Source: Escherichia phage vB_EcoP_phi296
Direction: 5' to 3' (one strand)
Sequence record: PV189400.1
DNA: 57,221 bases
Made by a program: the position numbers. Positions 39,001-42,000 of this stretch are shown in pieces (position 1 is the stretch's first letter; every line of letters starts with the position of its first letter).

Positions 39001-42000
39001 GATTTTGTCAATCTCACCTCAAATAATTCAGTGCTGTGTTTATTCTGTTGTTTATGCCAAAAATAAAGGCCGCCATCAGGCAGCCTTGTTGTTCAGTTTA
39101 CCAAGTTCTCTGGCAATCATTGCCGTCGTTCGTATTGCCCATTTATCGACATATTTCCCATCTTCCATTACAGGAAACATTTCTTCAGGCTTAACCATGC
39201 ATTCCGATTGCAGCTTGCATCCATTGCATCGCTTGAATTGTCCACACCATTGATTTTTATCAATAGTCGTAGTCATACGGATAGTCCTGGTATTGTTCCA
39301 TCACATCCTGAGGATGCTCTTCGAACTCTTCAAATTCTTCTTCCATACATCACCTCAAATAAGTGGTTTGCTGCCAAAACAATGAACCATCCGGAAATTC
39401 CAGATAGTTCATAATTCACTCTTCAATACTTCCAACTTACTAATCGCCGATAGATATCCGCGCTGATAGGGCATCATCATTCCTTCGAGCTTGCCACTTC
39501 TTAACTCCTCCCTGAGCAATTGTATTGCTTGATCAATAACCTCTGCCTTAGCGTCCTTTATGGCTTGCTTGCGGGGCTTTGCTTTCTGCTTTGGCAGATT
39601 TCTCAAGCATGATGGAATGTATGTCTGATTCATCACTTACCTCGCTGTCAGTTGTTTTGATTTCCGGTATCCTGCCGCGTAAATGGCTACGTTTGGCAGG
39701 CAAATACTTCCACTGCGTTCATCTTCTTCCTTGCAGCAAAGGCTTCCGAGTGATGCTGCTTTATCTGCTCTGACGCAACCAGAGAGCTTTAGCGCAATTT
39801 TTCGTGCCAGTCGCTGCTCTTGCATTGCCTGTTCACGTTGAGCCTGTCTGCGTGCTCTGCGGCGATTTCTGGCGTTATCGTCAGCCAGATATGTAATGAC
39901 TACTGTCATGTTGACCTCCGATGATTGACTTTGGCGGTGACGCGCCGGGTGCTTATCTTCCGGTTGCCGTCGTGCAGCTGCACTTCACGTCACCCCAAAG
40001 CCAACTACTCTTTGGTTCCCGCATTTCGGCGGGACAATCCCATCAATGTTAAAGAGCCTGCCAATCTGTTCCGTTTGGCTTCCAGCGCCCTGCTGATGGC
40101 TAAAGAATACTGTAGGTATTTTATTGTGTAAATACCCAAGGTATTTATTTTTGGTGAAATAATGATAAGCAAATGAATACAAAGGATATTTATTTTTTCG
40201 GTGTCTGCTTGTTCAGTGCTTTTTATGCGGGATATGTGAAGTGGATCCCGATAGCTATTGCTGCCGGGATTATAGGTTAGTCAGCGAAGGTTAAGACGAG
40301 AATTACCTTAATGATGTCTGCTACAACAGACACGGCCATAGATAAACCAAAGACGATCCAAGCCACAGTGATGTCTTCACTACCATCGTATAGAGTTCCG
40401 TAATCACTGGTGTAAGGCGTAAATGTCGCGCCTTGATACAATAGGTATAAGCTTGATCCATAGAGGATAAATGCAGATATCCCTTGTATTGCTATGATCA
40501 CCAGAATCATGAAACGAGCTGATCTATGCGCCCAAGCCTGGCTTATTTTTTCTGATAGAGATTTCGCAATAAAAGCATGCGCTAAGCCGTAAATTGTCGA
40601 GATTGCCAACATCCCAAAAAAGCTTGCTATAGCGGTTCCAACCATAATCGCCCCTTGCGTGATCAAACCAGCCTTAGTTTTGTCTCAATTGCAACGCCTA
40701 TAATCTTGCAGTTTCCATTGATTGGCACGAGAGGCCATGCAGGATTAAGTCCCTTGAGGTATTTATTTCCGCCGTCGATTATCAGCTTCTTGAATGTTGC
40801 TTCGTTAGAGTCAGAAAGTTTTGCTATGACCAAGCTGCCGTTGATCGCCTCCCTTCCGGTATCGAAAAGAACGAATGTTCCCTCTGGAATGCTTAACCCA
40901 ACCGGTGCCGTCATTGAATCACCTTCCACTTTAAGCCAGAACGCATTACCTTGAATATGCGCGTCAGACTCAAGCCAAACATCTATGTCTTTAATGGTGT
41001 ATGGTTCGCATGCTTCACACCACGAGCCAGCCTGGATACTGCTTAACACCGGATACCTCTTTCCTGCTCTGTATTCCCCTGCATACCTTACGTTGGCATC
41101 GCTCTTAAGGCTTTCTGCCTGTTCTGCAACCTTGGCAGCAATTGACTGGCTAAAATCAGCAATTGAGACTTGCAACAAACGTGCAAAACCAGATGCGACC
41201 TCAACGTTTAGCGCGTTTCTGCCATTAAGATAATGCCCTACCGCTCCTTGGGTGATACCCAGTTCATCAGCGATTGAGTATTGGGTTATTCCCAATTCTT
41301 TCTTTTTTGACTCATACAAAGCCTTAAGCCGCTTAGCGTCTTCGAGCTGTTCTGTCGTCAGTGATTTTTTATTTTCCATAGCTTAATTCTAATAGCTAAG
41401 GTACTTAAACTAAAAATACCCTGAGTATTGATTGCTTTGAATACCTGTAGTATTCTTTGTTCATGGTTAATAACGGAGAGTGCATATGATTCGAATGACA
41501 CTTGCCGATTACGCCAAAATCCATGGACAGGCTAAAGCAGCCAGTGACTTTGGTGTAATCCAGTGCGCTATCAGCAAGGCCATTCTGGCAGGCCGTAACA
41601 TCATGGTTACGGTAAAGCCTGATGGCAGTGTGATTGGAGAGGAAGTTCGTCCTTTCCCAAGCAACAAGAAAAACAAATAGTAACACCGCTCTTTAACAGT
41701 CATGGTCATCATTCCCGCCGAAATGCGGGAATACAACGCGCATAATTTGATGCGCATAACTTCTTATTTGTTAAGGAAATACTTACATATGCAACTTACA
41801 AGTACTCGCAAGAAAGCGAATGCAATTACAAGCAACATCCTGAATCGAATTGCTGTACGTGGTCAGCGAAAGGTTGCCGACGCGTTAGGGATTAATGAAT
41901 CGCAAATTTCGCGATGGAAAGATAGCTTCATCCCCAAAATGGGAATGCTTCTGGCTGTTCTTGAATGGGGTGTTGAAGACGAGGAGTTGGCGGAACTGGC

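Follow-up and report, generated by a model that had tools for sequence, protein, structure and literature searches.

The closest described relative of the locus reported here, a pair of identical hairpins in the immunity region of Escherichia phage vB_EcoP_phi296, is found in coliphage HK620. The HK620 record (AF335538, 2001) contains a "nutL; putative N-utilization leftward" and a "nutR; putative N-utilization rightward". The whole stretch that was analysed (PV189400.1, 57,221 nt) is called the window. The reference N proteins and nut (N-utilization) sites of lambda, P22, lambda imm21 (phi21) and HK97 were read from sequence records. The boxB hairpin of lambda is GCCCU-GAAGA-AGGGC at nutL and GCCCU-GAAAA-AGGGC at nutR. 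P22 displays GCGCU-GACAA-AGCGC at nutL and ACCGC-C-GACAA-C-GCGGU at nutR, where a C·C mismatch closes the GACAA loop. HK97 displays GCGCU-GACAA-AGCGC and CGCU-GACAA-AGCG, respectively. The hairpins of phi21 (UCUCAAC-CUAACC-GUUGAGA at nutL and UCACCU-CUAACC-GGGUGA at nutR) carry the hexaloop CUAACC at both nut sites. The complex of phi21 boxB with N has been solved (PDB 1NYB); as described in PMC12550061, UAAC adopts a GNRA-like fold with a non-canonical C-C pair beside it.

The 18-nt sequence TCCCGCCGAAATGCGGGA is present in two copies in the whole window, at 40017-40034 on the minus strand and at 41713-41730 on the plus strand. No further copy was detected in the window with up to two mismatches, and none is expected (100 shuffles). 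Both are transcribed as the hairpin UCCCGC-CGAAAU-GCGGGA, and each 20-nt hairpin folds as a stem of 5-6 bp with a hexaloop (-9.9 and -8.9 kcal/mol, z about -3.2). The two hairpins form an inverted DNA repeat (19 nt, 100% complementary) and therefore read identically, each on its own transcript; the asymmetric loop is CGAAAU, in sense orientation, on both divergent transcripts from pL and pR. A boxA of lambdoid type (CGCTCTTTA/GCTCTTTAA) is located a short spacer 5' of each hairpin, on the same strand and with the sequence GCTCTTTAA in both cases. On the left, the boxA (40049-40057, minus strand) is followed by the 14-nt spacer CATTGATGGGATTG (40035-40048, minus strand), homologous to the nutL spacers of phi21 and P22, and by the hairpin. 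On the right, the boxA (41688-41696, plus strand) is followed by the 16-nt spacer CAGTCATGGTCATCAT (41697-41712, plus strand) and by the hairpin; this spacer varies among relatives whereas the hairpin does not. As expected for lambdoid nut sites, the stem-loop is common to both sites, one copy lies in the pL transcript upstream of N and the other in the pR transcript just after cro, and a cognate N with an N-terminal arginine-rich motif is encoded beside nutL.

The annotations of HK620 were transferred to the window by adding 38136 to the coordinates of the corresponding locus (L001). The nutL and nutR of HK620 map to 40017-40058 and 41687-41732, exactly on the elements described above, and its pL, pR, OL1-3 and OR1-3 map to the positions inferred in the window. 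The mEpX2 record also marks both boxA sites. The earlier note, made from the sequence of the window, had proposed matched nutL and nutR sites with identical hairpins and a boxA 14-16 nt before them; these coincide base for base with the putative sites of HK620. We consider the hairpins, with their boxA, as nutL and nutR of a lambdoid prophage with HK620-type immunity, and estimate the probability of this identification at roughly 0.9. The feature is real, ordinary and already annotated. BoxA (GCUCUUUAA), transcribed first by the RNA polymerase that leaves pL or pR, would be the site that recruits NusB and NusE, and the hairpin of boxB, transcribed next, would be bound by the N-terminal arginine-rich helix of N. 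Tethered in this way to the nascent RNA, N would act with NusA, NusB, NusE and NusG to render the polymerase resistant to the terminators of both early operons, and the candidate terminators found downstream in both would be those that the N-modified polymerase reads through. By analogy with lambda, P22 and phi21, we infer the binding to boxB, the dependence on Nus factors and the antitermination by this N.

The N gene (39637-39909, minus strand) is localized a short way downstream of nutL, with a GGAGG ribosome-binding site 6 nt upstream. It encodes 90 amino acids, belongs to the Pfam family PF25694 N_peptide (E=5e-15) and is 93% identical to the N of HK620, annotated in that record as "similar to H19B and 21 N". 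Its arginine-rich motif NARNRRRARRQAQREQ (residues ~12-27) aligns with those of lambda, P22 and phi21. The motif is N-A-R-N-R-R-R-A-R-R-Q-A-Q-R-E-Q-A in the window, N-A-K-T-R-R-H-E-R-R-R-K-L-A-I-E-R in P22, D-A-Q-T-R-R-R-E-R-R-A-E-K-Q-A-Q-W in lambda and T-A-K-S-R-Y-K-A-R-R-A-E-L-I-A-E-R in phi21, and an alanine stands at the position of lambda Trp18. The core identities (6/12 with lambda, 6/12 with P22 and 5/12 with phi21, whose motif is GTAKSRYKARRAELIAERR) place the motif at about the same distance from all three. Outside the motif, the similarities are unevenly distributed. Over residues 1-64 the protein shares 51.6% identity with phi21 N (63 bits), residues 31-58 being nearly identical; the full-length comparison with P22 gp24 gives 34% (50 bits), and the last 22 residues match HK97 N at 91% identity (47 bits, E=6e-13). 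With BLASTP, the similarity to lambda N is confined to the arginine-rich motif (53% over 15 residues, E=0.014). A PDB sequence search with N gave no match at E values up to 10, the N peptides of known structure being too short or too divergent. These comparisons indicate that N is a mosaic, with an N-terminal part closest to phi21 N and a C-terminus of the P22/HK97 type, that phi21 N is the nearest named relative of its N-terminal two-thirds, and that the arginine-rich motif, the part that would determine specificity, constitutes a class of its own. The earlier description of the protein as P22 gp24-like rather than lambda-like thus holds for the two ends of the protein, only the extreme N- and C-termini being P22-like, but not for residues 1-64, nearest to phi21, nor for the equidistant motif.

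The hairpin and N are inherited together. This N is encoded, with 93-100% identity, by 80 contigs of IMG/VR; the hairpin was searched up to 700 nt upstream of the N start, and 76 of the contigs contain it without any change; an absence of the hairpin from phages with the same N, which would have spoken against the pairing, was looked for and is not what these contigs display. Among the four exceptions, one contig (L004) ends there, one (L058) has unrelated DNA replacing the leader from about 90 nt upstream of N, which from its appearance we guess to be an insertion sequence, and in the last two (L045 and mEp213, L046) this N is a second N gene. The exact hairpin occurs in at least 120 viral stretches, most of them with a divergent pair. 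Nine unrelated immunity cassettes were each found between two identical copies of the hairpin, 1134-2972 nt apart; the repressor modules are thus interchangeable, while N and its two nut sites are passed on together as a functional set. In a search that placed no constraint on the hairpin, the latter was invariant in all 11 HK620-type nutR variants, whereas the spacer and the 3' flank vary, a pattern that points to purifying selection. Of 5426 complete E. coli genomes, 693 (about 13%) contain the module composed of N and nutL with a coverage of at least 80%, and the carriers of this module include enterohaemorrhagic O111 strains and Stx-type phages. Prophages of E. coli O111:H8 and O111:H2 match a 464-bp piece of the window (N and nutL) at 100% identity.

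The boxB and the arginine-rich motif also vary together. Contigs were chosen only by the common pL leader and boxA (GCCAAACGGAA...GCTCTTTAAC), and 10 of them were unscorable or truncated. In all 162 scorable contigs the class of boxB corresponds to the class of the N motif, with five classes and none off the diagonal. The HK620 type is represented by 102 contigs, the P22 type by 42 and the phi21 type by 12, the phi21 motif being found only with CUAACC hairpins. Two other types share the same pL leader and boxA: type 4 (GGGGAUGAUUCGUCCCC / MKAREIRKLERARQHKE) with four contigs and type 5 (UCUCCUGCCAGUGUAGGAGA / NSKTRRYRQRGE, boxB NSKTRRYRQRGEVMAKRR) with two contigs. The 102 HK620-type cases include loci first fetched by N-based and hairpin-based scans, so that this cell is partly set by selection; the informative result is the absence of mismatched motif/boxB pairs across all five classes. 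The earlier proposal that the hairpin is a candidate recognition element of this class of N gains support from this co-variation without exception.

The hairpin is also a place where the module is broken. The pL operon of the phage mEp213 (L280, JQ182733, 3538-5783) contains two N genes. One of them, of lambda type (MDAQTRRRERRAEKQAQW...), comes first and is accompanied by lambda-type nutL and nutR. The second, of HK620 type, is located about 1.2 kb beyond the first; only the 3' half of its boxB (GCCCUCCGAAAUGCGGGA) is present upstream, the hairpin being broken in the 5' arm, and the 7.4 kb of mEp213 examined contain no intact boxB of HK620 type. The metagenomic contig L045 (1-540) displays the same tandem arrangement. 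Concerning nutR, the boxB of one contig (L175, IMG/VR 2541047884_000005) is interrupted in its loop (TCCCGCCG|TGAACCGCCCCGGG...), and an insertion or a rearrangement is the presumed cause. Three independent breakpoints are thus included in the 18-nt hairpin.

The loop was called an atypical 6-nt loop in the earlier note, a description that the hexaloop found at both nut sites of phi21 does not support. The loop of the window has pyrimidines at its first and last positions, like that of phi21 (C-GAAA-U and C-UAAC-C, respectively), and its six nucleotides exclude it from the lambda type, defined by a GNRA-like pentaloop (GAAAA/GAAGA) closed by a U-A pair. Membership in the P22 gp24 class, in which the motif GNAKTRRHERRRKLAIERD is associated with the boxB GCGCUGACAAAGCGC, is not observed either, both the motif and the hairpin being different. 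The preferred reading of the hexaloop C-GAAA-U is a GAAA tetraloop of canonical GNRA type on a closing C·U mismatch, for which the C·C-closed UAAC of phi21 and the C·C-closed GACAA of P22 nutR offer precedents; we give this reading by analogy an even chance. GAAA fits the GNRA consensus by its sequence, and a fold of this kind is known only for the boxB of phi21. A bulged C followed by a GAAAU pentaloop was also considered and rejected, this fold being 3.4 kcal/mol worse than the hexaloop.

A sister class was found by a search limited to the nutR boxA and the first part of the spacer (IMG/VR contigs L282, L285, L289, L293 and L297). Its nutR boxB is UCCCUGC-C-GCAA-U-GUGGGGA, with the same C and U flanks, a loop change only at the N of GNRA and a stem extended by a U·G pair; in one contig, a G-C pair replaces the G·U pair next to this additional U·G pair. 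Its nutL boxB is a plain tetraloop, GUAUGCC-GAGA-GGUGUAC, and its N begins with MNAKQRCKLRRLERRSEERN. The nutL and nutR of one and the same phage differ in stem and loop, yet both present a GNRA tetraloop, and the sister class represents an independent support for the C·U-closed GNRA reading. The position of N varies in these contigs: it is found 550-900 nt after nutL in L285, L289 and L293, with an open reading frame of ~200 amino acids between the two in L289, and at +236 in L282, where it is followed by an open reading frame of 184 amino acids.

We tentatively propose, at odds slightly below even, that the HK620-type N and boxB constitute a distinct specificity class, with a true GAAA tetraloop on a C·U mismatch and no extruded base, structurally between lambda/P22 and phi21. 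In lambda, the extruded base of boxB is thought to be needed for the engagement of NusA. If the proposal is correct, the pair would be orthogonal to those of lambda, P22 and phi21 and would provide a new tool for tethering peptides to RNA, and it would represent a natural test of whether the extruded loop base is dispensable for NusA engagement.

Other explanations of the hairpins were compared with their identification as boxB. Stable and GC-rich hairpins located early in both operons could be intrinsic terminators or attenuators of the early transcripts instead of sites for N loading, and the HK620 record indeed places "tR1" immediately after nutR. However, both hairpins lack a U-tract on their 3' side (where the sequence continues with ACCAAAGAG and AUACAACGC), the terminator scan picked out neither of them, and the fixed boxA partner and the co-variation with the N motif are not expected of terminators, which leaves this explanation with hardly any probability. 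The repeats could also act as DNA, as palindromic protein-binding sites or as recombination boundaries flanking the immunity cassette. They bracket interchangeable cassettes, and the recombination breakpoints of mEp213, L045 and L175 fall inside the hairpin. Conserved sequences at the borders of modules are nevertheless expected as crossover points whatever their function, and the breakpoints are therefore no argument for a role as DNA. Since the asymmetric loop is CGAAAU in the transcribed orientation in all cases and the strict tie with the motif class points to a recognition of the RNA, we consider this second explanation very improbable, if marginally less so than termination.

A last explanation accepts the hairpins as real boxB and denies the separate class of specificity: this N would be cross-specific and would also read the GNRA-like loops of lambda or P22 type. 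The first half of its motif, NARNRRRARR, matches DAQTRRRERR of lambda and NAKTRRHERR of P22 at the alanine and arginine positions, GAAA is the core of the GAAAA loop of lambda, and mEp213 keeps this N behind nut sites of lambda type. The C-terminal half of the motif is however different, with the alanine at the Trp18 position, and no contig of the 162 combines a motif and a boxB of different classes. We regard cross-specificity as unlikely, but it is the only one of the three that keeps an appreciable probability.

The identification as nutL and nutR has itself to be weighed against several observations. Taken alone, boxA is no more frequent in the window than chance predicts (13 matches against 12.5 expected, one mismatch being allowed), and what counts is the combination of boxA and hairpin. 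A third exact GCTCTTTAA at 11243 (plus strand) is followed by no hairpin and was rejected as a chance match. Some N systems, for example that of H-19B, are not known to need boxA, whose role is assumed here. The hairpin is invariant in every copy seen, and no covariation of the stem exists within the class. The case of mEp213, which keeps this N without an intact cognate boxB, indicates that the gene can persist unlinked from its site. Concerning the GNRA fold in particular, nearest-neighbour folding gives a plain 6-nt loop, and the C·U-closed tetraloop is proposed by analogy only. Finally, no published test of this N/boxB pair and no mention of its motif or hairpin sequence were found in the literature searched, outside which the HK620 genome paper lies. 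The mEpimmI system uses a different N-like protein (Gp17) and does not correspond to this pair. Other searches of the region gave null results: the 71-nt nut regions folded whole are no more stable than shuffled sequences (z -0.2 and -0.5), only the hairpin standing out; no "reducer" dyad of the H-19B kind was detected in the nut spacers; and an Rfam scan of 39500-42300 at E values up to 10 returned no nut or boxB family, with matches at chance level only.

The hairpins are included in a classical lambdoid immunity region, with the genes N, cI, cro and cII, and flank cI and cro. The pL promoter (40104-40132, minus strand; -35 TTTACA, -10 TATTCT) was detected by a promoter scan and overlaps the operator repeats at 40102-40146, where pL and OL1-3 of HK620 map. 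These repeats pair with those at 41414-41458, which contain the pR promoter and the OR operators (41428-41463, plus strand; -35 TTGATT at 41428-41433, -10 TATTCT at 41451-41456), the mirror image of pL and OL and the position of the mapped pR of HK620. The pR promoter scores 8/12 matches, below the threshold of the simple promoter scan. Counted from the transcript starts, boxB lies at about +64 to +81 for nutL (pL) and at about +250 to +268 for nutR (pR), the latter 33 nt beyond the stop codon of cro. The distances from pL and pR that the earlier note had expected are confirmed by these promoter positions, and both are comparable to those of lambda.

The cI repressor (40663-41379, minus strand) displays the HTH_3 and Peptidase_S24 domains and corresponds to the cI of HK620. 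The cro gene (41486-41680, plus strand) matches the Pfam family Cro (E=4e-26). The first gene downstream of nutR is cII (41789-42067, plus strand), which matches Phage_CII (E=1e-42) at the profile positions 1-91 of 91, so that the profile is fully covered from the shorter start at 41789, also chosen in HK620. The record of phage vB_EcoP_phi367 places the start of cII at an ATG at 41702 of the window, inside the nutR spacer, adding 29 amino acids across boxB, and it contains a 65-amino-acid "hypothetical protein" across nutL and pL (39985-40182, minus strand); both look like artefacts of gene calling. A hydrophobic open reading frame of 122-129 amino acids (40277-40666, minus strand; hkaS in HK620), with no Pfam match and no assigned function, is located between the pL operators and cI, where lambda has rexAB, and may encode a membrane or exclusion protein expressed by the prophage.

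The leader of N, from boxB to the start codon (39905/39910-40016, minus strand), folds as a long hairpin (-44 kcal/mol, z=-3.8, none of 200 shuffles being as stable). It occupies the place of the N leader in lambda, and its position and the partial sequence GGCUUUGGGGUG recall the lambda leader processed by RNase III. Some relatives have an extra insert of ~200 nt in this leader, which moves the hairpin from -125 to -329 relative to the start of N. Candidate intrinsic terminators were detected by the terminator scan as consensus matches only. In the pL operon they are localized at 39382-39412 and 39066-39087 (minus strand); in the pR operon, the first strong candidate downstream of nutR is at 44861-44884 and others are at 46172-46187 and 47044-47065 (plus strand). 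A strong terminator-like hairpin (14 pairs and a U-tract) at 42033-42065 on the minus strand runs antisense to cII at its 3' end, where lambda has its oop RNA terminator; Rfam gave a weak match to ctRNA_p42d (E=1.1).

The arrangement as such is the textbook nut layout, annotated in HK620 since 2001, and has little weight as a discovery. The module is common, and the expression of the early genes of many prophages would depend on this predicted N-boxB pair. The survey constitutes a natural table of at least six pairings of arginine-rich motif and boxB on a common boxA and leader, and a source of candidate orthogonal peptide-RNA pairs. From a structural point of view, it suggests that GNRA folds closed by two pyrimidines may be a recurring solution for boxB.

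The comparison with phage records covered the positions 39600-42100 of the window only (2.5 kb). This segment is 100% identical to vB_EcoP_phi367, a genome of Stx-phage type (Sepvirinae), and 98.3% identical to HK620, without insertion or deletion, over the region from N to cII. The boxA, the boxB and the nutL spacer of HK620 are identical to those of the window. One base of the nutR spacer is different (GGTCCTCAT in HK620, GGTCATCAT in the window), as are six of the 90 residues of N, all outside the arginine-rich motif. HK620 is a P22-like podovirus, whereas the rest of the window corresponds to a Sepvirinae-type (Stx-phage-like) genome. In the phi367 record, the positions 51807-54524 contain a cluster of tRNA genes (Met, Arg, Arg) followed by small open reading frames and nanS, with no annotated stx genes.

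Lambda shares with the window the genome layout, a similar pattern of arginines in the first half of the motif and a loop containing GAAA. It differs by its pentaloop closed by U-A with an extruded fourth base, by its spacer of 8-9 nt, and by an N that is unrelated outside the motif and has Trp18, for which the N of the window has no equivalent. P22 has the same boxA and leader, the same N ends (MTVITY at the N-terminus and LPxVAxYAAGxRKSKQxTAR at the C-terminus) and, at nutR, a loop likewise closed by a pyrimidine·pyrimidine (C·C) mismatch. Its boxB sequence and loop size are different, and its motif never accompanies the hairpin of the window in the survey. Finally, phi21 has the boxA GCTCTTTAACA in common with the window, as well as a homologous pL leader and spacers, a stem of 6-7 bp and a hexaloop with pyrimidine ends. 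The core of the loop is UAAC closed by C·C in phi21 and GAAA closed by C·U in the window, the motif is TAKSRYKARRAE in phi21 and NARNRRRARRQA in the window, and the C-terminal third of the N of the window is of the P22/HK97 type.

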